Shown: positions 25,629-39,674 of the stretch, one piece after another
Layout of the letters: every line of letters begins with the position of its first letter
How positions within the stretch are numbered: position 1 is the stretch's first letter
NCBI GenBank assembly: GCA_947502145.1
Contig: CANMYO010000006.1
Location: 11,476-75,475 of the forward strand
From: an uncultured Rhodobacteraceae bacterium
GTDB taxonomy: Bacteria > Pseudomonadota > Alphaproteobacteria > Rhodobacterales > Rhodobacteraceae
Direction of reading: 5' to 3'
Length of the DNA stretch: 64,000 nt
Notes under the pieces: generated by a model
The model's database searches: none
What the model was told of the DNA's origin: nothing
What the model saw: the letters and a program-made list of their open reading frames with translations, nothing else
Made by a program: the position numbers and the translations under genes

Positions 25629-26576
25629 ATGGCAGATACGACATTCGGACCCAAAGGCTGGACGCCAGAACGCCTCGGCTCACTCGCAGGGAAAACCTAT
25701 GTGATCACCGGCGCCAACGCGGGTGCTGGTTTCCAAGCTTCGCGCACCTTTCTATCAAAAGGCGCAAAGATTGTGATGCTGAACCGCAGCGCAGAGAAAT
25801 CAGCCGCCGCGGTGAAAGACCTGAAAGACGAATTCGGTGCGGAGGCCGATGTCAGCTTTGTACGAATGGACCTGTCTGATTTGGCAAGCGTTCGGGCTGC
25901 CGCAGAAGAGGTGAAGAAAACCGTTCCGCAAATTGATGCGCTGATCTGCAACGCGGCTATCGCACAGGTGCCTACCCAGAAGTTCACAGTTGATGGGTTT
26001 GAAAGCCAGATTGGCACAAATCATTATGGCCATTTCGTGCTGTGCGGAATGTTGTTTGACCGGATCGAAGCCAGCAAAGGCCGCATCGTCGTTGTCGCCA
26101 GCCTTGGCTACAACCTGGGGATCAAGACCATCCAGTTCGATGACATGAATTGGGACAAAAATTACAGCGCCAATCCTGTTTATAGCCAAAGCAAGCTGGC
26201 GCAGATGATGTTTGCATACGAGTTGCAGGATCGCCTTGAAGGGAGCGGCAAAGATGTCAAAGTCTACGTCTGCCATCCGGGTGCCTCCGCGACATCACTG
26301 ATCAGCACCAGTGGAGGTTTCCTGACGCGGATGACCTGGTGGCTGATGAGCAAGACGCCGATGGTTCAAACGGCCGAAAAAGGGGCTTACCCCGAGATCA
26401 TGTGCGCGACCGAGGACGGGCTGGAGCAGCGTGCGTTTTACGGCCCGACCGGGTTGATGCAAACAGGCGGACCTGTTGGCAAGGGCACGCTCAATCCTCA
26501 TGCCTATGACAAGGCGGTCATGGAAAAGCTGTGGGAAGTGTCGGAAGAGGCGACGGGGTTCAGCTGGGTACTCTGA
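25629..26576 (+). CDS. Short-chain dehydrogenase/reductase (retinol-dehydrogenase-like)
   Basis: 315 aa. Motifs VITGANAGAGF (TGxxxGxG), NAA and YSQSKLA (YxxxK). Confidence 0.8.
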   Translation: MADTTFGPKGWTPERLGSLAGKTYVITGANAGAGFQASRTFLSKGAKIVMLNRSAEKSAAAVKDLKDEFGAEADVSFVRMDLSDLASVRAAAEEVKKTVPQIDALICNAAIAQVPTQKFTVDGFESQIGTNHYGHFVLCGMLFDRIEASKGRIVVVASLGYNLGIKTIQFDDMNWDKNYSANPVYSQSKLAQMMFAYELQDRLEGSGKDVKVYVCHPGASATSLISTSGGFLTRMTWWLMSKTPMVQTAEKGAYPEIMCATEDGLEQRAFYGPTGLMQTGGPVGKGTLNPHAYDKAVMEKLWEVSEEATGFSWVL

Positions 26577-26805: not shown

Positions 26806-27696
26806 TCAATAACCTGCAGAGACAAAACAATCGCGATGATGTCCCAGGAACCGTTCTGAAGGATACAATCGCTTGTCTTGCGGGAGGTGAACCCTAGTAA
26901 GAGATGGCTCGAGCAAATGATGGAAATCTGATGGAATGCGGTTATGAGCAACAATCAACCTGAACGCCGGGTCGATCGTTATGAGGTGGCGGTCAAAGAG
27001 CCAGTGAGCTGTCGCCGATAACGCGAGCCCGTTTTGAACGACGTCGGGTCCATCGCTCTCAACGGGTTGAATATGGGCGGCTTGTACTTCGGATCGACCG
27101 CCCCCATTCACAATCCGAAGGCGCGTTACAGCACATCGATCATCATATGCTTCGCAAACGATCTTTCGAAACGACGCATCGCGCACTGCTCGATTGGTAA
27201 GCCGTTCTTCTCGCGACCTAGAAATCGCTGTGTTTTCCGCTTGAGCATCTCCTTTTGGCCACCATCTGGACGCGCCTTCCGGATCTAAGATTTCGCGAAG
27301 CCCAAGATCGACGATCGCATTGAAGTCAGCATCCTCAAGCATGCGCACGGACCGCCCACGAAGGTATATACCAACTTGAGAGACATCGCGTATCTCGCGT
27401 AGTGCCCGCTCAGCATATCCTCCGCCAGGTTTCCACGGCACAGGACTGGGGAACTGTAGATAGTCCGCGATAATCGCATAATAGAATCCATCGCTCTCTT
27501 CATCTGGCAGAATGTCGATGACTCTTGCTACGGCAAAATATGCAATGCCTTCGCCACCATCGCGAGGTCGGCGAAAAACAATCCAATCGTTTAGTGCCTT
27601 CTCTATTTGTCGCAAGTACCTCGAAGGAAAATGATAATGTGAAGCGACTTCGTCGTCGTATGCCGACCCTCGTTTTGCGTCGAGAACGATTTTCAT
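26806..27696 (-). CDS. HNH (HNH_2-type) endonuclease with an N-terminal reader-like domain
   Basis: 296 aa. C-terminal motif CAVTRLRIVNGGGRSEVQAAHIQPVESDGPDVVQNGLALSATAHWLFDRHLITIDP. N-terminal ~170 aa (YDDEVASHYHFPSRYL ... IVFRRPRDGGEGIAYFAVARV) resembles the domain commonly fused to this HNH in putative modification-dependent enzymes. Last gene of the four-gene operon, with a 13-nt gap to dcm. Confidence 0.75.
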   Translation of the reverse strand: MKIVLDAKRGSAYDDEVASHYHFPSRYLRQIEKALNDWIVFRRPRDGGEGIAYFAVARVIDILPDEESDGFYYAIIADYLQFPSPVPWKPGGGYAERALREIRDVSQVGIYLRGRSVRMLEDADFNAIVDLGLREILDPEGASRWWPKGDAQAENTAISRSREERLTNRAVRDASFRKIVCEAYDDRCAVTRLRIVNGGGRSEVQAAHIQPVESDGPDVVQNGLALSATAHWLFDRHLITIDPAFRLIVAHNRIPSDFHHLLEPSLTRVHLPQDKRLYPSERFLGHHRDCFVSAGY

Positions 27697-27709
27697 CGCT
27701 CTAGTCGAC

Positions 27710-28855
27710 TCAACAACTTGACGAGCGGAAGCATCCGACGTCGAGTGTTACGAGGCTCTCTCTGATTGTTCGGCAAAGAACTTCAGCGAGCAGAACAGGA
27801 ACCGCGTTGCCTATTTGGGCACCCGTCGCCATCAATCCTCCTTCAAAATCGAACGAGTCAGGGAAAGTTTGTAGCCGGGCGGCCTGCCGAGCCGTTATTC
27901 CATGATGCTCTGTTGGGTGGACAAAACGTCCTTTGGAAGGGTTGATGCAAGCTGTCGTCATCGTAGGCGAAGGTCGACTTGGATCGACTCTTCCATATAC
28001 GTCTTTATGGCCGTTGTGCCCCTTGTGGCATGGAAGTACTCGGTTGGATTGTGCTCGTGAGCCGCCATTGGCTGGCGTGCTTTTGAACACGTCTATCAAT
28101 GCTTGTGTATGGTTCATGTGGATTGCATTTGGGTCTTCATCCCGTTCAGTTTCAACAAACGCATCCGCTGCCGTCCGCCAAGCCGGCAAACCGATCTCGT
28201 TTGCTGTTTCAGGCTTCGCATGTGTGGGACTCGGCGGCCATTCTAACTCATCAAAGCTGAACTCAGACGACATCCCCAGGATGAAGACCCTCTTTCGATT
28301 TTGAGGAACCCCAAAGTCACGAGCGTTGAGAATTACTGGGCCAATCACATGATATTGGCTTTCTTCAGCGATCGTGAGAAAGCGATCCAGATATTCTGCA
28401 TGCTTTGAGTGCAGGAGACCTGGAACATTTTCCACTAGGAAGAACTTGGGTTTAAGAGCTTTGACGAACGCAAAGTAGCGCAAAAGCAACTCGTTGCGGG
28501 GATCATTGACTCCTGCTGAGCCAAGTCGATGCGATGAGAAACCTTGGCAAGGCGGCCCTCCGAGCAGCAAATCACATTCGCCAGATATCAGCCCGCACTC
28601 GGACATAAGTTCCGCTGGACCTACTTCGCTAATGTCGTTCTCGAAGACAGCAATTCGGCGATTACTGACGTTCTGAATGTTGTTTCTGTAAGTACGGCTC
28701 GCATGTCCGTCCTTCTCAATTGCGGCCCTCAGCTCGAAACCGGCATGGATTGCTCCTAGGGAAAACCCTCCCGCTCCAGCAAATAAATCTACTGCAAACA
28801 GCGGCTTGTTGCCACTTTCTAGGGTTACATGGATATCGCTCTTCTGATCTAACAT
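27710..28855 (-). CDS. dcm: DNA (cytosine-5)-methyltransferase
   Basis: 381 aa. Motif I DLFAGAGGFSLG, motif IV GGPPCQGFS, motif VI FLVENVPGL, motif VIII QNRKRVFILG, motif X GNAVPVLL. Confidence 0.9.
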   Translation of the reverse strand: MLDQKSDIHVTLESGNKPLFAVDLFAGAGGFSLGAIHAGFELRAAIEKDGHASRTYRNNIQNVSNRRIAVFENDISEVGPAELMSECGLISGECDLLLGGPPCQGFSSHRLGSAGVNDPRNELLLRYFAFVKALKPKFFLVENVPGLLHSKHAEYLDRFLTIAEESQYHVIGPVILNARDFGVPQNRKRVFILGMSSEFSFDELEWPPSPTHAKPETANEIGLPAWRTAADAFVETERDEDPNAIHMNHTQALIDVFKSTPANGGSRAQSNRVLPCHKGHNGHKDVYGRVDPSRPSPTMTTACINPSKGRFVHPTEHHGITARQAARLQTFPDSFDFEGGLMATGAQIGNAVPVLLAEVLCRTIRESLVTLDVGCFRSSSC

Positions 28856-28880: not shown

Positions 28881-30719
28881 TTAATCGGAACCTTCAACTG
28901 GGATTTCCAGTTCGGCCTTTTCATATTCAAGGCCAATCCTGCCCAATGACCTATTCAGTCGTGCTTGTACTTCGAGAGCGTATTCGTACCGCAAATGCCC
29001 GCAAACCGTAGCAGATTTGCGGACCAAGGTGGGCTCAGCCGCTTGTCCGTCGTCGTCAGCGGCGGCATTTGACGCAACAAAACGCACCATGACCTCAGAC
29101 GTATCTCCAGCCAGTCTTCCATCATTTTCTGCATACATGGAGACCGCGGCGGGAGAGGCAGCTGGACTATCGACAACCGAAAACGCAACTGGCGTGGTCT
29201 CCCCTCCTTGTACTGCTGCGATGTTGGCGAACAGAAAACCACCTTGGGCGGGATCGTTTAACGCGGTCGCCTCCTTTGCTGCTTCAAGGGCCAAAGCATT
29301 GAATTTCTTATACCCACCTACGTTATCAGGACGACGTTCAATTCCGCGTTCACGGCCAGGAAACATGTCGCATGCGGGTGTCACGCACATCCAAAATTTG
29401 TCGTCGATCCTAAATATGTGGCCAAGCTCAAGATGACTGCTTCGAACGGGTTTGCTGCCCTTGAAGGCGTTGTGACCCATACGTGCCTTCATCAGCTCTT
29501 TGTCGTCGCGGAGATCGATCTCGAACCTTTCTTTCACGGCATTCAAAGGAACCGCATCAGCATCCAACGCGGCAATCCTTGCGGCGTATGCTCCGACCTC
29601 CGGAACAATATGATCCAGGAGCTGTTCTGCATGATTTCGCGCTATTCGCTCAACCGTGACAGCGGCGTCTTGAGAATTCGCGGAAAGAACCCCGTGATAC
29701 CAGGCCGCTCCCACTTGCCTGTCCCCAAGAGCATCATCCTGAACCTCGACACCCCGTTTGTTCATCTCTGCTCTGAGCTTTGTCAAAACAAGGCGGGACG
29801 GAAGTGGTTTCCAAGCTTCCAGCGCCTCAAGAAGCACCGGCAACAGTGGCTCTTTGCTCTTCCTCTTGAACGCGATAAAGCCTTGATCGCAGCGTATCCA
29901 AAAAGGCTCTCCTGCGCTCCAATCTCTTAATCCAATATCGTCGCTAGAAAAACGGTCTTCATTGTCCGCTTCGAATGTGGAAAGCAGTTCTTGGAACAAA
30001 GCCCGCCAGTGCTTTCGATGGAGATCTTCATTCTCCAAAAAGCTCGATAAATCACCCCAAGGCGCCTCACCCTTAATCAAACGCCTGAATGCGTTCGCAG
30101 ACCTCCGAGCATCCAAGTACTGTGGGACATCAAACCGATCTCGAAGGGCGTCGGCTTTCGTTTCCAGAATTGCTTCGACCTCATCCGCCAAATCGTTGGT
30201 TGCTTCGGCAGTGTCTTCGATAAGTGATGAGCAAGGCTGGAGAAGGCCCAAGGCGAAATGGCCAAACACAGCGTCGAGCTCTTTTTCCGTGTGGACGAGG
30301 ATAAGGTTGAAATGCCTATTGGTTAGCGCCCCTCGAGCAATCGCCAATGCGGCCTTACCAACGTTGGGACCTGTCTCGAGTTCATAGTCCAGAACGAGCA
30401 AGTCAGTTTGTTGAAGGCGGTGAACTTCGGCGAGGTCCTGCTTTTCCGGCGGCTGGCTTCCGTCATGTACGTCAAGCAGATAAGGTCCGTCTGGCTGGCG
30501 GAATTCGCCAAGAACTCTTCCTACAGCCTCCGGGTCTCTAGCCCAGGCTTTGGCGGTTTTGACCAATAACGCTCCATCCGCGTCAACGCTGGCGGACGCC
30601 GCCCCCAATATCTCATCCACTGTGGGATACTGATCGTCAACGATCAAAACTGACCGGATCGGCTCAATGAACGCCTCTCTAATCAATGCTCCGTAACTAA
30701 TGGGTAATTCTGCTGTCAT
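28881..30719 (-). CDS. Atypical receiver (REC)-like domain protein with an uncharacterised ~450-aa C-terminal region
   Basis: 612 aa. The N-terminal ~150 aa have REC-like landmarks: VLIVDDQ (acidic pair), DLLVLDYEL (candidate phospho-acceptor Asp) and NLILVHTE (Thr). Its ATG overlaps the upstream gene's TGA (ATGA at 30716-30719). Confidence 0.6.
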   Translation of the reverse strand: MTAELPISYGALIREAFIEPIRSVLIVDDQYPTVDEILGAASASVDADGALLVKTAKAWARDPEAVGRVLGEFRQPDGPYLLDVHDGSQPPEKQDLAEVHRLQQTDLLVLDYELETGPNVGKAALAIARGALTNRHFNLILVHTEKELDAVFGHFALGLLQPCSSLIEDTAEATNDLADEVEAILETKADALRDRFDVPQYLDARRSANAFRRLIKGEAPWGDLSSFLENEDLHRKHWRALFQELLSTFEADNEDRFSSDDIGLRDWSAGEPFWIRCDQGFIAFKRKSKEPLLPVLLEALEAWKPLPSRLVLTKLRAEMNKRGVEVQDDALGDRQVGAAWYHGVLSANSQDAAVTVERIARNHAEQLLDHIVPEVGAYAARIAALDADAVPLNAVKERFEIDLRDDKELMKARMGHNAFKGSKPVRSSHLELGHIFRIDDKFWMCVTPACDMFPGRERGIERRPDNVGGYKKFNALALEAAKEATALNDPAQGGFLFANIAAVQGGETTPVAFSVVDSPAASPAAVSMYAENDGRLAGDTSEVMVRFVASNAAADDDGQAAEPTLVRKSATVCGHLRYEYALEVQARLNRSLGRIGLEYEKAELEIPVEGSD

Positions 30720-33703
30720 TGATCTTGTGTCTCTAAACCACGGAATTCGATAAGAAATGTTGCGCCTTTCAAGGGCACATCGTCGTCCTCTGTCCGATAG
30801 CGTATCAAGTGCCCGCCAGCAGCCAAGTTCGCTCTAGCAAGGTAAAGCCCAACGCCACGGCCCGAACGCTGTTTGCGTGTAAAAAACAGGTCAAAAATTT
30901 GCTCAGTTTCTTCAGCATCCACACCAGGCCCTGTATCAGAAACGGCAACTAGGTCTCCGACGAGATCCAGTTGTATCCGCCGGTCGGCAGGTGGTTGGGT
31001 AGCAGTCCAGTAAATACTGTTGTTTACAAGATTCAAAAACACCGGGAAAACGCGGGATGGCCTTTCGAAGACCCTAGCGGCGCGGAACTCTTTGGAAGCG
31101 GCGAACGAGATGCCCGCACGCGCAAAGGATGGGGCAAAAAATTGCTCGACAAACGATGCGATTTCTTCTCCAGATATCCACTTCTGCACTTTCTCACCAG
31201 ACAGGCGCATTGGTGAAAGAAAGCGCAGCTGGTCTGTGAGACCTTCCACTCCCAGGCGTATGTCGTTCACGGCCCGATGGTCCTGGACCTCAGCTGGTAA
31301 CCGTCGCAAACCTTGAGAGATCATTTCTTCAAAATCAGCTAGGTCGTGAGCGGCGATCTCAACTGCGATACCCAGTTGTGCTAGTGAGTTAAGGCGCTCT
31401 ACTTCTCTGTTCGCTTCGCCAAGTTCTCTCATACGGACACTTGCCAGTGTCTGGAGGTCAATCCGTTCCTGGACCGCTTCGAGCGCAGATTGATAAAGAC
31501 CAAAGGCAGCTCGGTTTTCTTTCGACCAGTCTTCTTCACGACGAGAAACACCCTCAAGCGCTTCTTCAAACGTTAAAAGCTCTGCTGAAAAACGCCGCGC
31601 GACATCGTTGAGCTCATCTTGAAACGCGTCCATTCGCGTTTCTGCCAGCTCGCGCACCGTCTTGTTTTGGTCACGTTGAAGGTTCTCAACGTTTGTTCGC
31701 AGTTCACCTATGCGTTTTCGCATCGAGGATATGGCCGCATCGGTGCGCTCTCGCAGGATGTCTTCCGGTTTATCTGGAATGGCCGTTTCGATCGCAGACC
31801 TCAGCGTTGCCTCATATCCAGAAATTGCGGCTGCGGCTTCCCTTGTTCGCTTTTGAACCTCATCAAAGCGCGTTGCCCAACGTCCACTTGGGGTTGACCT
31901 GGCGCGCACCAGCGCCTCCTCGTATCGCCTACGCATCTCGGCGAGTCGCGCTTCTTCGCGAACAATGCTAGGACCGGAAGTAACGTCGAGATCACCGGTT
32001 GCTTCTTCCACTTCGTCGATAAGACCCGGCAACATCTTTTCTGCACGCTCAACCTCGGCCCTGAAGGTTCGACGTTCTCGATCACGCAGTTTCTTCTCGC
32101 CTTCGGCTGCATTGGCGGATCGATTGTCCTCTTGAATCTGTGGAAGACGTTCTTTGCGAAGCTTTGAAGCGGATCCGAAGAAACGTCGTGCCGCTGTTTC
32201 GAGCACGTTGATAACTAACTCTCGAAAAACACGGGATGCAGCATTGTCGATAACACCTTCGCGCCCAGCTTTATCCTTCAAGTTAGGGTTACCCTTTCGC
32301 GTCAAGGCAATGCGACCAAACATTCGGCGGTGGTTCCAGAAATGCCTGCCCGCGTTTTTTGACCGGCGTTTCTCAATCTCATAGAAGTCGTTGTCTTCTC
32401 TGCCATAAGGAAGCACTCGTAGCCCATCACGAAAGATCATTAGGCCGCCGTAGTCCGAAGCCAGATCTTGATATGCTTTGTGCTGCCCTGTTGGATGCGT
32501 CGAGCTCTTGTCCTCCCACTCCATGGTCGCGATGAATAGTTCGAAACTACCCACCCTGCTGTTGGTCCGATTTGGTACCTTGAGTTCTGCGGGTGGTTCG
32601 AAAACTACAACTTCGTCAATCGAATTTCCGAAGGCCCGTACGCGGCCCCTGAATACGCCATTCTCATCTACGGTCCCTTCAATCTGGTGTTCCAGACCAG
32701 ACACCCTAGCTCGATCTATTCCACGCTCCGCGCCGACGATCAGCCGTGGGGTTCGATCCAAGTCCCTAGTGTCGACAACGTCAGCTCTATAATCAAACTC
32801 TGGCTTTGCTTGTCCTTCTGCATATGGATCGACAAAGCTGGCCAACGTCTGCTCAAAACGATCGCGCGCGCTTTGCGCCGCAATATCAGTGTCCTTCGGT
32901 CTGCCCAGTGCTTGTAGAGCCTCGTCTACTTCACTTACCAACAGTGCCGTCCCAAAACCGGACCATTCTTCCAGGTGTTCAATCGTAAACGGCAACCGCT
33001 TGAGCGCTTCGAGTGTTCTCGCAGAAGGGGCAAGGCCCGGCTCGTCGGAGCGATCTTTCGTCCAATCATCATCAAACCTCTTCCACACATCTAGCAGTAC
33101 GGGCTTTTTTTCACGCCAACTGGCTAAATCCTTTTGCGCGACTAATCCGGCTGCAAGCTTGTCCGACATATCATCCAAAGCCGCAAAAACATCCTCGATC
33201 TGCTCAAACTCACCAGCTGCTACAGGAACATCGTCCAAATCGATGTATGGATTTTCGAACAACCGCCAATCCAAAAGCGCAGCAATCAGGAAACCATCTC
33301 GGCGGCGAGACAGCATTAAGAGAATAGGGCCAAGTTTGGCGCTAGAAAGGCGGCCAATTCCCTTCTGACCTTGCTTTGGTCTAACTGGTAGACCATTGCG
33401 GTCTTCTTTCGGGACCGGCAGATTGAACGAAGTTTTGCTTTCTGTTCCTATTACCAACCACTTTTCAAACAAGTCGTCCAAGGACATGCCATGTCCGTCA
33501 TCCGCCAGGAGGGTCACAGCCGCATCGCTTGAGTAGACACGCAAAGTAACTTTGCGGGCATAGGCATCCCAGGAATTTTTCCAAAGCTCTGAGACCGCCG
33601 TCGGACTGTCAGCGATTTGCTCACGTCCAAGGTGATCAACCGTTCGCGCTCGCGTACGAAATTTTCTAGTCTCTAAAGACCTTGGAATAGCGGTGTCACT
33701 CAT
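30716..33703 (-). CDS. Fusion of an N-terminal MORC/Hsp90-like GHKL ATPase, a coiled-coil linker and a C-terminal histidine-kinase core (DHp + CA)
   Basis: Tracked ORF 30716..33730 starts at TTG; ATG at 33703 preferred. N-terminal Bergerat motifs are SELWKNSWDA (N box), DDGHGM (G1) and GQKGIGRLS (G2). Residues ~540-800 are Arg/Glu-rich helical. An H-box-like VEIAAHDLADF is followed by a second ATPase with LNLVNNSIYW (N), SDTGPGV (G1) and GRGVGLYLA (G2). Confidence 0.7.
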   Translation of the reverse strand: MSDTAIPRSLETRKFRTRARTVDHLGREQIADSPTAVSELWKNSWDAYARKVTLRVYSSDAAVTLLADDGHGMSLDDLFEKWLVIGTESKTSFNLPVPKEDRNGLPVRPKQGQKGIGRLSSAKLGPILLMLSRRRDGFLIAALLDWRLFENPYIDLDDVPVAAGEFEQIEDVFAALDDMSDKLAAGLVAQKDLASWREKKPVLLDVWKRFDDDWTKDRSDEPGLAPSARTLEALKRLPFTIEHLEEWSGFGTALLVSEVDEALQALGRPKDTDIAAQSARDRFEQTLASFVDPYAEGQAKPEFDYRADVVDTRDLDRTPRLIVGAERGIDRARVSGLEHQIEGTVDENGVFRGRVRAFGNSIDEVVVFEPPAELKVPNRTNSRVGSFELFIATMEWEDKSSTHPTGQHKAYQDLASDYGGLMIFRDGLRVLPYGREDNDFYEIEKRRSKNAGRHFWNHRRMFGRIALTRKGNPNLKDKAGREGVIDNAASRVFRELVINVLETAARRFFGSASKLRKERLPQIQEDNRSANAAEGEKKLRDRERRTFRAEVERAEKMLPGLIDEVEEATGDLDVTSGPSIVREEARLAEMRRRYEEALVRARSTPSGRWATRFDEVQKRTREAAAAISGYEATLRSAIETAIPDKPEDILRERTDAAISSMRKRIGELRTNVENLQRDQNKTVRELAETRMDAFQDELNDVARRFSAELLTFEEALEGVSRREEDWSKENRAAFGLYQSALEAVQERIDLQTLASVRMRELGEANREVERLNSLAQLGIAVEIAAHDLADFEEMISQGLRRLPAEVQDHRAVNDIRLGVEGLTDQLRFLSPMRLSGEKVQKWISGEEIASFVEQFFAPSFARAGISFAASKEFRAARVFERPSRVFPVFLNLVNNSIYWTATQPPADRRIQLDLVGDLVAVSDTGPGVDAEETEQIFDLFFTRKQRSGRGVGLYLARANLAAGGHLIRYRTEDDDVPLKGATFLIEFRGLETQDQ

Positions 33704-33805
33704 AAGTCCACGCACCCCCGGCTTGTGCAATGGCGGTGCATGAGACCGCGTGCGAACACTCGTAGTGAGGGAGCATCGCAGTCTCCAAAGTGGTTTGCCT
33801 CACCG

Positions 33806-34473: not shown

Positions 34474-35022
34474 TCAGCCCACCCAATCTATAATGCCGTG
34501 ATCATTAAATGCGCTCTCGTGAAGCGTTTCGACTTTGTCGCAGAAGACGACCAGGTTCTGCGTATCTGATCGGGCAGATGGAACAATCAACCCATCAAAG
34601 TCCAAGAAATGAGCAACCTCGCCGATCTCTTGTGTTCTAGGATACTCGTCATTCTTTTGCTGATAAGACAATCGGCCAAAGGTATCCGTCTTCAAGCCAA
34701 CTTCGCCGAGCGCGGCCAGGTCCAGAAACTGGAGTGCGCGCTCGAGCGCTAGGTCAACTTGGAACATCCGGTATTTGACACGGCTTGGTATGACGGGTTG
34801 GCCGCGCATTAGGTGGAAGCGCATTTCTTCGAGAGCACCCATCTGTGACATCGACGTGTAGAGCACATCGAAGCTGCCGTCATCCCACCGACCACCGGAA
34901 GCGCTGCATTGCAATGGATCTCTCCCATCGCGCACCAACCTCCAGACAGGACCGGAGAAAGCCACGGGCTCGATTGCTTCAAGAGCGTCAATAAGAGCGT
35001 TGTCGCGCCGGGCTTTGATCAT
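34474..35022 (-). CDS. RES-domain toxin (MbcT/ParT family)
   Basis: 182 aa. The R-E-S landmarks are GGRW, YTS...GALEE and LIVPSARS. Confidence 0.8.
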   Translation of the reverse strand: MIKARRDNALIDALEAIEPVAFSGPVWRLVRDGRDPLQCSASGGRWDDGSFDVLYTSMSQMGALEEMRFHLMRGQPVIPSRVKYRMFQVDLALERALQFLDLAALGEVGLKTDTFGRLSYQQKNDEYPRTQEIGEVAHFLDFDGLIVPSARSDTQNLVVFCDKVETLHESAFNDHGIIDWVG

Positions 35023-35030
35023 TGCGGACT

Positions 35031-35369
35031 CTATACGAAGACATCGTTGTCGAGACGATCAATTACCGCCAAGACTTCGAGACTACGGTCATTATGGATC
35101 AAATCCATTGCACGTTCACCACCAAGCTGAGGATGTCTTGCATAAAGCCACGCACGCACTTCTTCAGGAGCATAGTACTCGTTGAGGCGACCAACGATGT
35201 AATAGAGATCTGAAAGGATGAGTTCATTGCGCGGCTGGGGTTTAAAATCGCCAGCTTTCCAACGGGAGACAGTTGCCTTGGACACATCAGTTATGTTGGC
35301 AATGTCGGTCCCTTTCAGACCCCCGATTTCGGCAAGTTCGCCAATGTATCTTGTTACAGCACTTTGCAT
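35031..35369 (-). CDS. Xre-type antitoxin with C-terminal DUF2384 (MbcA/ParS family)
   Basis: 112 aa. HTH GTDIANITDVSKATVSRWKAG, then WLYARHPQLGGERAMDLI. 8-nt gap to the RES gene. Confidence 0.8.
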   Translation of the reverse strand: MQSAVTRYIGELAEIGGLKGTDIANITDVSKATVSRWKAGDFKPQPRNELILSDLYYIVGRLNEYYAPEEVRAWLYARHPQLGGERAMDLIHNDRSLEVLAVIDRLDNDVFV

Positions 35370-35374
35370 ATCTA

Positions 35375-36709
35375 TTACCTTTGGTCGCCAAGCAGCGATG
35401 GTTGCGCGATGTTAAGATCGCAGGCCCGCGCACGAGGCGACTCTGTTCCGCGCTCCTCATGGAGTTTTTCAAGGGCATCCGCAACCTTGCCCATGGTTTC
35501 TGCATGTGTTCGCGTGCGTTTTAGCAAGCTTTCCAAATCCACGTCTGCGGCGAGGGCCTGCGCCTCGGTTGGCTTCAAAAAACTGATGTCCTTCGCGCGA
35601 CGCTCCGCCGGCGCAACCGTCTTCGACAAGAAATGGCCGGCTCTATTTAGGTCCGGAACATCATCTAGCGCCGATTGTGAGCGCGCGATGTGGAGCGCTT
35701 GAACTTGCTTTCGGGTCCTTACCATCTCGTCAATGCTGGGTGCGCTCACATGTTCGCTTTGCAACAGTAGCTTGCGCCCTCCCCTCGCCCGCGCCAAAAG
35801 CTCGAACTCATGAGCCCGAAATCCTCTCCCCAATCCGGGAACCTGAACGATGCGCGGTCGACCAAACTTAGCATCCGGATCGCGCTCTTCAGGTGGTTTG
35901 TGCCAATCACGTGCGTTGAACTGATCAAGTTCAAGAATGCCGCCTGCCGCCCCTGAAGCAACACCAAAAGCCTCTGCCGCTTCGGCGTTCAAGCCAGAGC
36001 AATAGTCAAGAATGATGGGTTTGCCCAAATTATGCAGCCCGCCCAACATCCGGATGAGCGTCCGGACTTTCTGAGGACCCGGATCTTTACCGAGCCCAGA
36101 CAAGCGCATCCACAAGGCATCAATTGGTAGGTTGGATAACGTTTCAACAAGTGCTTTTCGGGAGGTCGAGTCGATCAAGCCTTGAACGGTTTGCATTACG
36201 GGATAGTCGATCTGGATATGTTTGCCGCCTAGGGTGTCCAACGCACGGCGCAATCTGGTGCAAGAAGCGGCATCAACAGAAAGCCAGCCGTCAAAACGCC
36301 GATCACCGAGGAAATGCGTGGGCGCTAGAATGCGATCTGCGCCAAGCTTGATGGCTGTTTCAGCTATGCGCTCGATGGTGTTTCCATTGAAATCAGAAGG
36401 TCCAAGCGGCTTGTCCGGTACGTCTACGAGCCAATCCGCATGACGCACAAATGTTCCAAACCGTGCGAGGCTGGATAGCTCGGCAGCGCCTGTATCGAGC
36501 GTAATTTCAACATTTTCGCTTTTGAGCTGCGTCGCAAGTCCGCTTTGACGCTTGAGACGCCCTGCTTCAAAGACGACCCGTGTCAGGGGCAGATGTCCTG
36601 AAGCATGCATTTCTCCGAATTTCACATGTGAATCGCCGATACGGAAGAACTGCGCCAGCGGCGTGCGGAGCTTCTGACCTTTTGGAAATGGGACGACAAC
36701 TGTGTTCAT
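35375..36709 (-). CDS. Uncharacterised 444-aa protein co-transcribed with the Xre-RES pair
   Basis: Long clean ORF with an ATG start. Its stop (35375-35377) is 5 nt from the Xre start codon. No family motif recognised by eye. Alternating beta/alpha-like composition over ~300 aa, then a helical Arg/Glu-rich tail. Confidence 0.6.
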   Translation of the reverse strand: MNTVVVPFPKGQKLRTPLAQFFRIGDSHVKFGEMHASGHLPLTRVVFEAGRLKRQSGLATQLKSENVEITLDTGAAELSSLARFGTFVRHADWLVDVPDKPLGPSDFNGNTIERIAETAIKLGADRILAPTHFLGDRRFDGWLSVDAASCTRLRRALDTLGGKHIQIDYPVMQTVQGLIDSTSRKALVETLSNLPIDALWMRLSGLGKDPGPQKVRTLIRMLGGLHNLGKPIILDYCSGLNAEAAEAFGVASGAAGGILELDQFNARDWHKPPEERDPDAKFGRPRIVQVPGLGRGFRAHEFELLARARGGRKLLLQSEHVSAPSIDEMVRTRKQVQALHIARSQSALDDVPDLNRAGHFLSKTVAPAERRAKDISFLKPTEAQALAADVDLESLLKRTRTHAETMGKVADALEKLHEERGTESPRARACDLNIAQPSLLGDQR

Positions 36710-37808: not shown

Positions 37809-39674
37809 ATGACCAAACAGCAACCCATCACCCAAAACACCGCCAGCGCCGTGATCCAGCAAATCCCGTTGGACGCGCTGTCCATCTCTGATTTGAACCC
37901 ACGCACAACGGTTTCAGAGGCGCATATCGAAAGCCTCGCCGACAGCATCGAGCGCTTTGGCCTCATTCATAACCTTGCAGGCTTCATGGATGCGGACGGT
38001 AATGTCGGCATCGTTGCTGGTGGGTGCCGTCTTCGCGCCCTTGAACGGATTGCAGAGCGTTCCAAAAACCATTCCTTCGAAACTGTGCCTGTAAAGCTGG
38101 CCTCCAGCGCCGAAGAGGCCGAAGATTGGGCCAGCGCCGAAAACGCGGTCCGTGAAGACATGGCCCCAGCGGACGAAATCCGCGCCTTTGGCCGAATGAA
38201 GGCCCGCAATGCAACGGTGCCGGAGATTGCACTCGCGTTTGCCGTTACAGAGGCGCGCGTTTATCAACGGCTGGCGCTTGCGGGTCTGCCAGACGCTGTG
38301 TTGGACGCGCTCGCGGCGAGTGAGATTGGCCTGGGTACTGCCAAAGCGTTCACACTTTCCGATGATGAAGCACTCACCCTGAGCCTCTTGGATCAAGTTA
38401 AGGGGCAAGCCGTGTCGGAGGCGGCGATCAAAAACGCGCTACATCCCGATGCCATAAAGGCCAGTGATCGTCGTGCGAAGTTCGTGGGCGTTGAGAGATA
38501 CGAAGCCGAAGGTGGCAGTGTTACTCGTGACCTCTTCTCCGACGAAGTCTTCCTCGCCTCCCCTGCCCTTCTGGAACGTCTCTTCGGTGAGGCGCTGGAC
38601 ACGGCCCGCAATGAACTGGTCGAAGCGCAAGGCTGGGCTTGGGCCGAAGCGCGCACCGAGGCGTGGCTCAACTACTATGATCTCGATCAGATGAAACTGG
38701 AACGGGTCTATCCAATTGAGGGCGAACTGACCGAAGCAGAAGCCGAGGAATACGACGCACTCGCGGACCTCGCCAATGGCGGCGTCTTGGACGAAGATGG
38801 CGAGGCTCGGTTGTCCGAGTTGCAAACCATTCTGGACGGCGACTACTCAGCAGATCAGAAGGCCCATGCGGGATGCATTCTGCTTGTAAATTCATCTGGC
38901 AAAGTCGAAGTGACGGCGGGTTTGGTGCGCCACGATGACAAGAAGGCGGCGATCGAAGCAGGAATCTTGAAACCCCCGCAAAGCACAAAGTCCGATGTGC
39001 CGAAATCTCCTTACTCGCAGAAACTGACGGCAGACATGCAAGCCATCCGTCTGGCATCCGTGCAGGCCGCAATCCTGACGAAGCCCGAACTTGTCCTTGA
39101 TCTTTTGGGATTTGGGTTGTCCGACGCCTCTGGCAGTTTTGAGCGTATCTTTGGTATGCGTATGGATCGCCCAAACAACGCTCCGAGCATCGAAGATGGC
39201 TTTGAAGCGGAACCACGTTTGAACCATGGGATCGATGCAAGCGAGTATTGGCAGCAAGGGACCCGCGTTGAAGACCTCTGCGCTGCCTTTGCCACCTATC
39301 GCGACGGCTCCAAGAAGTCGCGTAACGTCACAATCACGGAAGCCATTGCGCGCACCCTGCCCTATCAGGCTGGCGGTCAAGAATTCTTCGCGCTCATTGA
39401 GACAGAGGCGGGTGCCGATATCCGCAGGCACTGGACGCCCACTGCACAGAACTTCTTTTCGCGCGTGTCAGCAGGCTATCCTGTTGAATTAATGTGTGAA
39501 TTCTTGGAGTGCAGCGCCAATGATGAACGCTTGACCGCCTTTGCCAAACTCAAGAAAGGCGAAAAGGCCGAGAAGATGGAAAACCTGATGACGAATGCAA
39601 CGACGCAAAAGCTGATGGGGCTGACGGCAGATCAAAAAGCCAAACTCGACAAATGGGTGCCTGACTGCACCTAA
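37809..39674 (+). CDS. ParB/Srx-like nuclease-domain protein (large conjugative-element ParB-like protein)
   Basis: 621 aa. N-terminal ParB box region (IPLDALSISDLNPR ... LADSIERFGLIHNL ... IVAGGCRLRAL), then a long C-terminal extension as seen in ICE/plasmid leading-region ParB-like proteins. Confidence 0.75.
   Translation: MTKQQPITQNTASAVIQQIPLDALSISDLNPRTTVSEAHIESLADSIERFGLIHNLAGFMDADGNVGIVAGGCRLRALERIAERSKNHSFETVPVKLASSAEEAEDWASAENAVREDMAPADEIRAFGRMKARNATVPEIALAFAVTEARVYQRLALAGLPDAVLDALAASEIGLGTAKAFTLSDDEALTLSLLDQVKGQAVSEAAIKNALHPDAIKASDRRAKFVGVERYEAEGGSVTRDLFSDEVFLASPALLERLFGEALDTARNELVEAQGWAWAEARTEAWLNYYDLDQMKLERVYPIEGELTEAEAEEYDALADLANGGVLDEDGEARLSELQTILDGDYSADQKAHAGCILLVNSSGKVEVTAGLVRHDDKKAAIEAGILKPPQSTKSDVPKSPYSQKLTADMQAIRLASVQAAILTKPELVLDLLGFGLSDASGSFERIFGMRMDRPNNAPSIEDGFEAEPRLNHGIDASEYWQQGTRVEDLCAAFATYRDGSKKSRNVTITEAIARTLPYQAGGQEFFALIETEAGADIRRHWTPTAQNFFSRVSAGYPVELMCEFLECSANDERLTAFAKLKKGEKAEKMENLMTNATTQKLMGLTADQKAKLDKWVPDCT

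Follow-up and report, generated by a model that had tools for sequence, protein, structure and literature searches.

The HNH_2 gene described here lies within a window of 64,000 nucleotides (the whole stretch of DNA analysed), as the last member of a predicted four-gene operon on the minus strand in which a paraMORC-type kinase, a receiver-like protein and a Dcm-type cytosine methylase precede it in order of transcription. The features are listed in Table 1. The kinase and receiver genes overlap by 4 nt, the end of the receiver-like gene is separated from the start of the Dcm gene by 25 nt, and the ATG of the HNH gene follows the Dcm stop codon after 13 nt. No promoter- or terminator-like site was found at the junctions of the operon in a scan whose counts were at or below shuffled expectation and are hence uninformative. 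Both reading frames reported in a first-pass annotation of this DNA are present, with the HNH_2 protein of 296 residues encoded directly after an intact Dcm, and the peptides quoted there (YHFPSRYL and FRRPRDGGEGIAYFAVARV) were located at residues 21–58 of the HNH protein. The window contains no tRNA genes. Four congeneric genomes lack the HNH gene; one of its flanking genes is matched in a single one of them at 74% identity, and the other by weak fragments only. Synteny of either flanking gene is lost in all four. The region as a whole is variable, and an island boundary could not be placed.

Table 1. Features of the predicted operon, in window coordinates
Feature	Coordinates	Strand	Details or basis
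paraMORC-type GHKL ATPase fused to histidine-kinase core	30716..33730	minus	Pfam domains
Response_reg_2 receiver-like protein	28881..30719	minus	PF19192, E=2.5e-12
C5 cytosine DNA methyltransferase (Dcm-type)	27710-28855	minus	381 aa; all catalytic motifs intact
HNH_2 protein, whole gene	26806-27696	minus	296 aa
EVE-like (PUA-superfamily) predicted modified-base reader domain, residues 1-140	27277..27696	minus	AF2 and Foldseek
Helical linker, reader to nuclease, residues 141-183	27148..27276	minus	Secondary structure and pLDDT
HNH_2 (beta-beta-alpha-Me) nuclease domain, residues 184-296 and stop codon	26806..27147	minus	PF13391

The methylase matches PF00145 (E=9.4e-62), aligns over its full length with M.HaeIII and retains each of the motifs FAGAGG, GPPCQGFS, ENV, QNRKR and GNAVP intact. 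The nearest solved structures are 3g7u and M.HaeIII, with the similarity lying mainly in the catalytic core. It is the sole C5 methylase of a genome that is 99.99% complete, and no vsr gene adjoins it or occurs anywhere in that genome, which bears out the initial remark that the partner of this Dcm is not Vsr.

In the kinase protein, HATPase_c_3 (residues 44–155) and HATPase_c (residues 891–996) both score above their cut-offs, and HEF_HK (residues 785–842; 22.5 bits) falls slightly below its cut-off of 24.1. The receiver-like protein matches Response_reg_2 with 47.8 bits against a cut-off of 27, and its C-terminal region of about 450 residues gives no match in Pfam. With Response_reg_2 and GHKL/HEF_HK-like neighbours, and a linked C5 methylase with HNH_2, the locus belongs to the kinase/receiver/C5 methylase cassette that has already been published, for which HNH_2 was named as the most frequent nuclease domain in the vicinity (Bellieny-Rabelo et al., 2021, PMC8011034); paraMORC operons with DCM, VSR and HNH have also been described (Iyer et al., 2008, PMC2292703). 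In both studies the HNH is treated as a type II restriction component. The operon type with its HNH_2 neighbour is known, and the reader domain and the coupling to Dcm and Vsr are undiscussed in the literature examined: term searches found no mention of a PUA domain in the former paper or of an SRA domain in the latter.

The AF2 model of the N-domain of the HNH protein (pLDDT 88.7) was used to search for structural homologues with Foldseek. The top PDB matches are all EVE proteins (2p5d, 2hd9, 2gbs, THYN1 5j3e and 2eve; TM 0.5–0.68), below which come mainly YTH and ASCH domains. In the comparison with SRA, EVE and YTH folds that had been proposed at first pass, the EVE fold is therefore the closest; the suggestion of a PUA/SRA-like domain holds for the PUA-superfamily, reader-type fold, but the domain is EVE-like and not SRA. 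Pfam gave no match to residues 1–169, PF01878 (EVE) included, even at E<=10, and a profile-to-PDB search with the N-domain returned a single marginal match, to the EVE protein 2p5d (E=0.066). With Pfam blank, and with phmmer and profile searches of the PDB returning EVE only marginally, the fold assignment rests on the AF2 model and Foldseek, which support residues 1–140 as an EVE-like domain of the PUA superfamily whose resemblance is structural. Residues Y13, D15, Y21, F23, P24, Y27, W38, R42, Y53, F82, E96 and R118 are invariant or nearly so; all but R42, E96 and R118 are candidate pocket residues. The N-domain is also found elsewhere, in a protein that joins Mrr_N, EVE-like and HNH_2 domains and in fusions to C-terminal regions that are not HNH.

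The linker is modelled with low confidence at residues 141–160, and its length differs among aligned homologues. In the nuclease domain the match to PF13391 spans residues 188–242 (E=4e-11), and the catalytic His...Asn...His of the HNH/beta-beta-alpha-Me fold is intact as H208, N222 and H231, all invariant across 38 homologues, as is C188 in the homologue alignment. TagI (6ghs) aligns with residues 147–252 (phmmer E=1.2e-3), the NCBIfam model PT-DNA_restrict covers the HNH half only (E=3.7e-21), and the PADLOC type II HNH model matches weakly (E=2e-6). For the full-length AF2 model (pLDDT 82) the best Foldseek matches are TagI, VcaM4I and ScoMcrA.

The HNH family, with over 1,300 members, is mostly alphaproteobacterial. 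Dcm and/or Vsr genes lie within 8 kb of the HNH gene at 28 of 80 loci, and within about 3.5 kb at 25; Dcm-Vsr-HNH triplets with overlapping genes recur, and the Vsr and HNH genes overlap by 4 bp at seven loci or more. On the HNH tree this linkage has been gained or lost at least 7–12 times. Solitary copies amid housekeeping genes, scored where at least 3 kb was available on each side, make up 31 of the 59 judgeable loci, and no DNA-methylase family is among the neighbour families listed for these 31. A C5 methylase is entirely absent from five of the 31 genomes, three isolates among them, and is encoded elsewhere in the remaining 26, as compared with 9 of 14 control genomes. The solitary occurrence means that a cognate methylase is unnecessary for the family, although the copy in the window is co-operonic with Dcm. 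In the subclade to which that copy belongs, 100% of the judgeable loci are Dcm/Vsr-linked, so a Dcm-dependent role may hold there. Conservation reaches at least 90% at 83 positions in linked and solitary copies alike, the candidate pocket residues are kept in both, and no alignment column separates Dcm-linked from solitary copies.

Further gene contexts are varied. Homologues adjoin a type I R-M system, and also occur in an island that encodes Vsr together with a HEPN-like nuclease and a DUF262 protein. The HNH protein as a substitute for Vsr is ruled out, as locus L002 and many others encode both. A search of 2.9 million viral contigs returned one match to the family, and with this single relative a phage origin of the gene is unsupported.

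Sequence comparison of the partners gives little sign of matching. Pairwise identity of HNH proteins is scarcely correlated with that of the neighbouring Dcm proteins (rho 0.14): the HNH proteins of L073 and L076 are 84% identical and their Dcm proteins 24%, and the corresponding values for L003 and L004 are 71% and 29%. On our reading of the alignment, the target-recognition regions of the partner methylases are of at least six types, which cannot be aligned to each other. Moreover, an Eco29kI-like nuclease is encoded at L024 as well, and SacI-like nucleases at L033 and L036. In the HNH family, contrary to what would be expected of a type II system, the methylase is not always present and specificity does not co-vary. 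Solitary copies, methylase-free genomes, unmatched specificity and complete type II systems next door together argue against the new HNH type II pair that the first-pass annotation had envisaged, and the HNH protein is most likely an optional add-on to the methylase cassette and not the matched restriction enzyme of Dcm.

The concern that a methyl-reading nuclease beside a methylase would be toxic to its own host is a real one. The authors of TagI explain host tolerance by the lack of a detectable C5 methylase (PMC6212794), and the host of ScoA3IV, according to its authors, carries only one such methylase, probably inactive (PMC4333417); in contrast, the window encodes an intact Dcm as the gene upstream of HNH. 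Gating by the kinase/receiver pair had been offered as a way out, and as a general mechanism it is not supported. The pair is present at only 3 of 80 HNH loci, cassettes of Pantoea and Pseudoalteromonas have no fourth gene, and that of Rhizobium TAL182 has Vsr as its only addition, which show that the HNH gene is optional in the cassette and mostly found outside it. It follows that the capacity to tolerate 5mC has to reside in the nuclease.

The explanation we favour, to which we would give an even chance, is that the HNH protein is a modification-dependent (type IV-like) nuclease of the 'reader-linker-HNH' class directed against modified phage DNA, capable of standing alone, an optional fourth gene of the cassette and not matched to Dcm. 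By analogy with VcaM4I and TagI, we infer that the N-terminal EVE-like domain would flip a modified base into its conserved aromatic pocket, that the enzyme would be kept in check by its helical linker, and that the C-terminal HNH_2 domain, probably as a dimer, would cut close to the modified base. The gene appears to have been recruited to the published three-gene cassette, where it would be co-transcribed with the methylase, and its product would be neither matched to nor dependent on the Dcm target sequence. The likeliest substrates would be densely modified or hyper-modified phage cytosines, namely 5hmC, glucosyl-5hmC and fully 5mC-substituted DNA, and the sparse Dcm sites of the host would be tolerated. 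In that case two arms, one based on methylation and one dependent on modification, would be joined at the locus. If the nuclease does ignore Dcm methylation, the strong Dcm/Vsr linkage is explained only as that of complementary defence arms.

An alternative that we regard as unlikely takes the host's own mark as the substrate: the EVE-like domain would bind the 5mC made by the resident methylase, perhaps when hemimethylated, and the HNH domain would nick the DNA under direction of the methyl mark together with the MutL-like paraMORC protein and Vsr, in repair or in discrimination of foreign DNA. Such a scheme would transfer a logic like that of MutH/MutL/Dam to methylated cytosine, and an analogy with MutL and Vsr was drawn by Iyer et al. 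(PMC2292703). It is consistent with a strong linkage to C5 methylases of whatever specificity, with HNH occupying the slot of Vsr in the cassette, and with HATPase_c_3 (MutL/paraMORC-type) proteins (10 ORFs) being the additional neighbours seen most often at Dcm-linked loci. However, most family members have no GHKL neighbour at all, and the presence of both Vsr and HNH at L002 means that the two are not simple alternatives. The C5 methylases found elsewhere in the solitary-copy genomes fit this scheme, but their frequency is barely above that in the control genomes, and the five genomes that encode none speak against it.

A classical type II R-M(-V) system, in which the HNH protein would be the cognate enzyme cutting the unmethylated Dcm site and the EVE-like domain would serve in DNA binding or in excluding methylated sites, is in our estimate quite improbable. 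The methylase-then-nuclease order within one operon, the short intergenic gap, the recurring triplets, the uniform linkage in the window's subclade, the classification of HNH_2 neighbours by Bellieny-Rabelo et al. (PMC8011034) and the weak PADLOC match all point in its direction. Against it stand the common solitary copies with their five methylase-free genomes, near-identical HNH proteins beside methylases with unrelated target-recognition regions, and the Eco29kI-like or SacI-like enzymes already in place at some loci; furthermore, the architecture as a whole and the nearest relatives that have been characterised are all of type IV.

A gated 'mark then cut' or addiction system, in which a nuclease cutting Dcm-methylated DNA would be held back by regulation, either until the kinase/receiver pair turns on methylase and nuclease upon infection and so causes suicide, or until loss of the locus brings killing, would account for the paradox of co-transcription and has precedents in the regulated coexistence of a Dcm-like methylase with a 5mC-dependent HNH (PcaRCI/PcaRCII; PMC8989522) and in the auto-inhibition of the VcaM4I nuclease by its EVE domain and linker (PMC7897488), but is very unlikely given the rarity of the kinase/receiver pair, the frequent Vsr in the cassette, which implies constitutive host methylation, and the predicted transcript shared with the methylase, which leaves no way for promoter silencing of the PcaRCII kind to affect the nuclease alone.

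Type IV reader-nucleases are regarded as incompatible with a resident cytosine methylase and as occurring separately from such enzymes; in contrast, the EVE-like-HNH family is coupled to Dcm and Vsr genes, often by overlap, in about one-third of loci. Should hyper-modified phage DNA be attacked and sparse 5mC be passed over, as we favour, such loci would be compact two-armed defence units, and to take the published paraMORC/kinase/Dcm cassettes for type II systems would have been a misreading. If the mark of the host is read, a new kind of methyl-directed nuclease would be at hand: it is conceivable, though improbable, that the EVE-HNH protein, the MutL-like paraMORC ATPase and Vsr form a portable system for nicking directed by cytosine methylation, irrespective of the target sequence of the resident methylase, by which strands, or self and non-self, would be told apart; this would explain the translational coupling of one conserved nuclease to C5 methylases of six or more unrelated kinds. 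In either case the enzyme, small and easily cloned, could find use as a mapping reagent for modified cytosines.

Among known systems, the EVE-HNH enzymes VcaM4I and TspA15I (Lutz 2019, PMC6765204; Pastor 2021, PMC7897488) share the layout of an EVE domain of about 140–147 residues, a helical linker and an HNH domain in some 300 residues. VcaM4I is divided into EVE (1–147), linker (148–178) and HNH (179–309), with pocket residues P24, W82 and Y130 (PMC7897488), and enzymes of this type favour 5hmC or densely modified DNA (PMC6765204; PMC7897488). The VcaM4I group matches the full-length model with a Foldseek E of 1.8e-6 and 12–13% identity in the structural alignment. However, the window protein has no EVE match at the sequence level, and with the N-domain alone as query the matches listed comprise free-standing EVE proteins and not VcaM4I. 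The families also differ in context, as the Dcm/Vsr linkage at 28 of 80 loci far exceeds the less than 6% of cases in which PUA-type nucleases are reported near DNA methylases (PMC6765204). The SRA-HNH type IV enzymes TagI and ScoA3IV (PMC6212794, PMC4333417) have the reader-plus-HNH logic in common with the window protein, and TagI is both the closest solved relative of its HNH domain and the top Foldseek match of the full-length model, but their reader is SRA where that of the window protein is EVE-like. The cassettes of Bellieny-Rabelo et al. (2021) and Iyer et al. (2008) have the identical gene set of paraMORC-type GHKL with kinase, Response_reg_2 and C5 methylase. In Pectobacterium carotovorum, PcaRCI and PcaRCII (Birkholz 2022, PMC8989522) likewise place a methylase of the Dcm type and an HNH nuclease that depends on methylation in one genome, and there the conflict was recognised and is resolved; the N-terminal domain of PcaRCII is helical, and its gene is not linked to that of the methylase and is shut off by silencing of its own promoter, whereas the window protein has an EVE-like domain and is encoded on a predicted transcript shared with its methylase.

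The operon is composed of four minus-strand open reading frames arranged head to tail, encoding a kinase-like protein (HK), a receiver-like protein (REC), a C5 cytosine methylase (Dcm) and an HNH_2 protein (hereafter, the HNH protein). The HK stop overlaps the REC start by 4 nt, the intergenic gaps amount to 25 nt (REC–Dcm) and 13 nt (Dcm–HNH), and no promoter- or terminator-like sites were found in a scan of the junctions. The HK gene starts with TTG, and the HEF_HK score of its product (22.5 bits) lies just below the Pfam cut-off of 24.1 bits. Dcm aligns end to end with M.HaeIII, has complete catalytic motifs (FAGAGG, GPPCQGFS, ENV, QNRKR and GNAVP) and is the sole C5 methylase of the 4.03-Mb, 99.99%-complete genome, in which vsr was nowhere found. 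The first-pass annotation, which described a Dcm with an HNH_2 partner instead of Vsr, is correct in every detail by ORF analysis, Pfam and genome search.

Genes of the operon and modelled segments of the HNH protein
Feature	Length	Position	Strand	Pfam match
HK	1004 aa	30716-33730	-	HATPase_c_3 (MutL/MORC type) + HEF_HK + HATPase_c
REC	612 aa	28881-30719	-	Response_reg_2
Dcm	381 aa	27710-28855	-	DNA_methylase, E=9e-62
HNH protein	296 aa	26806-27696	-	HNH_2 at residues 188-242
EVE-like domain (predicted)		residues 1-140 of HNH protein
Helical linker		residues 141-183 of HNH protein
HNH domain		residues 184-296 of HNH protein

Directly upstream on the same strand lies a RES-domain toxin gene (34474–35022; PF08808, E=2.5e-21), past which a 112-aa and a 444-aa ORF are found (window 34474–36709). 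The GC content dips to 0.50–0.53 over 27–35 kb, versus 0.55–0.58 in the flanks. Synteny of the flanking genes (25629–26576 and 37809–39674) was not found in four same-genus genomes: only one of the four has a copy of one gene (74% identity), and the other gene is represented by weak fragments alone. The variable region must thus far exceed the operon in size.

Residues 1–170 of the HNH protein returned no Pfam match, and PADLOC and NCBIfam matches are confined to its HNH half. A full-length AlphaFold2 model (pLDDT 82, pTM 0.80), calculated from an alignment of 38 full-length homologues, was compared with the PDB using Foldseek. The top three hits were all type IV enzymes: TagI (SRA-HNH, E=1e-6), VcaM4I (EVE-HNH, E=2e-6) and ScoMcrA. 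For residues 1–150 modelled alone (the N-domain; 46 sequences, pLDDT 88.7), the top structural matches were all EVE-domain proteins, namely 2p5d and 2hd9 (TM 0.66–0.68), 2gbs, THYN1 bound to 5mC DNA, and 2eve; the sole profile-level PDB match is the EVE protein MJECL36 (E=0.066). YTH and ASCH domains rank after the EVE proteins, and the reader-like N-domain proposed at first pass is supported by this modelling: the N-terminus is predicted to be of reader type, with an EVE-like fold. The EVE-linker-HNH layout is that of VcaM4I (EVE 1–147, linker 148–178, HNH 179–309), in which the pocket residues are P24, W82 and Y130 (PMC7897488). A modified-base pocket may also be present in the N-domain, whose conservation equals or exceeds that of the nuclease domain. 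Its invariant residues include Y13, D15, Y21, F23, P24, Y27, W38, R42, Y53, F82, E96 and R118; H208, N222 and H231 of the nuclease domain are invariant among the 38 homologues.

The protein family comprises more than 1,333 full-length relatives, mostly alphaproteobacterial, and the N-domain alone as query returned 1,174 clusters at 50% identity. The N-domain is modular: in one relative a Mrr_N winged-helix domain precedes EVE-like and HNH_2 domains, while others have non-HNH C-terminal regions with a weak sigma-70-region-4-like segment. These fusion proteins include P0199 (759 aa), P0200 (452 aa) and P0224 (410 aa). The HNH gene is missing from the four same-genus genomes and most of the bacterial family, and is essentially absent from the viral contigs searched. 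The nuclease decays occasionally, as seen in two broken homologues, one with a single in-frame stop beside intact Dcm and Vsr (L015:8001-8450) and one with three TAA stops in a same-family genome (G051:C67:2190-2936). Some homologues have a defence context: one on R. johnstonii pRL11 is immediately next to a type I R-M system, and one on a Roseomonas plasmid is grouped with Vsr, a HEPN-like nuclease, a DUF262 protein and a cytosine methylase.

At 28 of 80 genome loci of HNH homologues, a C5 methylase and/or Vsr lies within 8 kb (linked loci), and at 25 of these within ~3.5 kb. For PUA-type nucleases, proximity to DNA methylases is reported in <6% of cases (PMC6765204), a far lower share. At least seven loci (L004, L006–L009, L017 and L032) share the order Dcm-Vsr-HNH with a 4-nt Vsr-stop/HNH-start overlap; others show HNH-Vsr-Dcm, divergent arrangements or HK-REC-Dcm-HNH-Vsr (L002). 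At a Nitrosovibrio locus (L079:2137-8001) a 1955-aa ORF ends at the start of the homologue, whose other flank carries a Vsr gene. Another 31 loci, each with 3 kb or more on either side, are solitary: their neighbours are housekeeping genes, for example those for ribosomal protein S2, EF-P and transporters, with no DNA-methylase family among the families listed around them. Linked and solitary copies interleave in the HNH tree, where parsimony gives 12 changes and well-supported branches force at least 7. Some linked proteins are near-identical to solitary ones, no alignment columns separating the two groups were found, and conservation reaches at least 90% in each group at 83 positions.

The HNH protein could well be a type IV-like, NTP-independent reader-nuclease, a reading to which we give about even weight. 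It would tolerate sparse host 5mC and attack DNA whose cytosines are densely or hyper-modified, in line with what has been shown for the TspA15I/VcaM4I group (PMC6765204, PMC7897488), so that the operon would pair a methylation-based arm (Dcm) with a modification-dependent arm (HNH). The strong Dcm/Vsr coupling, independent of methylase specificity, is not explained by this reading and leaves room for a protein that uses 5mC itself, as a MutH-like methyl-directed nickase with a MutL-like paraMORC, which we consider rather improbable.

The first-pass suggestion of a new HNH type II R-M pair, with the HNH protein cognate to Dcm, is unlikely. A C5 methylase is absent genome-wide from 5 of the 31 solitary genomes, three of these five being isolates of 6–7.4 Mb. 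HNH identity does not track that of the neighbouring methylase (rho 0.14): the proteins are 84% identical at L073/L076 and 71% at L003/L004, versus 24% and 29% for the adjoining methylases. At least six mutually non-aligning target-recognition region types were read from the alignment of partner methylases. Second nucleases are also present, an Eco29kI-like enzyme between HNH and the Dcm-Vsr pair (L024) and SacI-like enzymes at L033 and L036. Together with the interleaving and shared conservation of linked and solitary copies, these findings are incompatible with a sequence-specific endonuclease reliant on its neighbour's protection.

A gated or addiction module has a precedent in PcaRCI/PcaRCII (PMC8989522), but fits poorly with the predicted common transcript of Dcm and HNH and with the frequent presence of Vsr in the cassette, and is very improbable. 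The gating by the upstream kinase/REC pair raised at first pass does not generalize, as this pair is present at only three of the 80 loci (L001–L003) and the cassette exists without HNH; kinase gating cannot be a general safeguard of the nuclease. The cassette core is three genes: plasmids of Pantoea dispersa (L091) and Pseudoalteromonas (L092) carry Dcm-HK-REC and nothing else, with no Vsr, HNH or other annotated nuclease, and an annotated Rhizobium TAL182 plasmid carries HK-REC-Dcm-Vsr. HNH is thus an optional addition, placed where Vsr also occurs in the cassette, and any effector activity at L091 and L092 would lie in the REC C-terminal region or the paraMORC module. ParaMORC-type GHKL ATPases are the commonest further neighbours in Dcm-linked loci (10 ORFs), several being 449–477 aa without a kinase part. 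Such a kinase-free HATPase_c_3 ATPase (449–477 aa) lies downstream of Dcm-Vsr-HNH operons at L007:8926-11227, L009:9014-11318, L004:3406-4836 and L008:1303-2649, followed at L007 and L009 by a 317-aa Methyltransf_35 protein (E=2.7e-91). Dcm-Vsr-HNH with a kinase-free GHKL ATPase looks like a second flavour of the same module.

The cassette of paraMORC-type kinase, Response_reg_2 protein and C5 methylase (Bellieny-Rabelo et al., PMC8011034), its HNH_2 neighbour and EVE-HNH type IV enzymes are already known, and paraMORC operons with DCM, VSR and HNH were drawn by Iyer et al. in 2008 (PMC2292703). What these accounts appear to leave unstated is that the HNH_2 partner probably carries an EVE-like reader domain, that its family seems indifferent to methylase specificity and that, unlike other PUA-type nucleases, it frequently forms operons with Dcm/Vsr.
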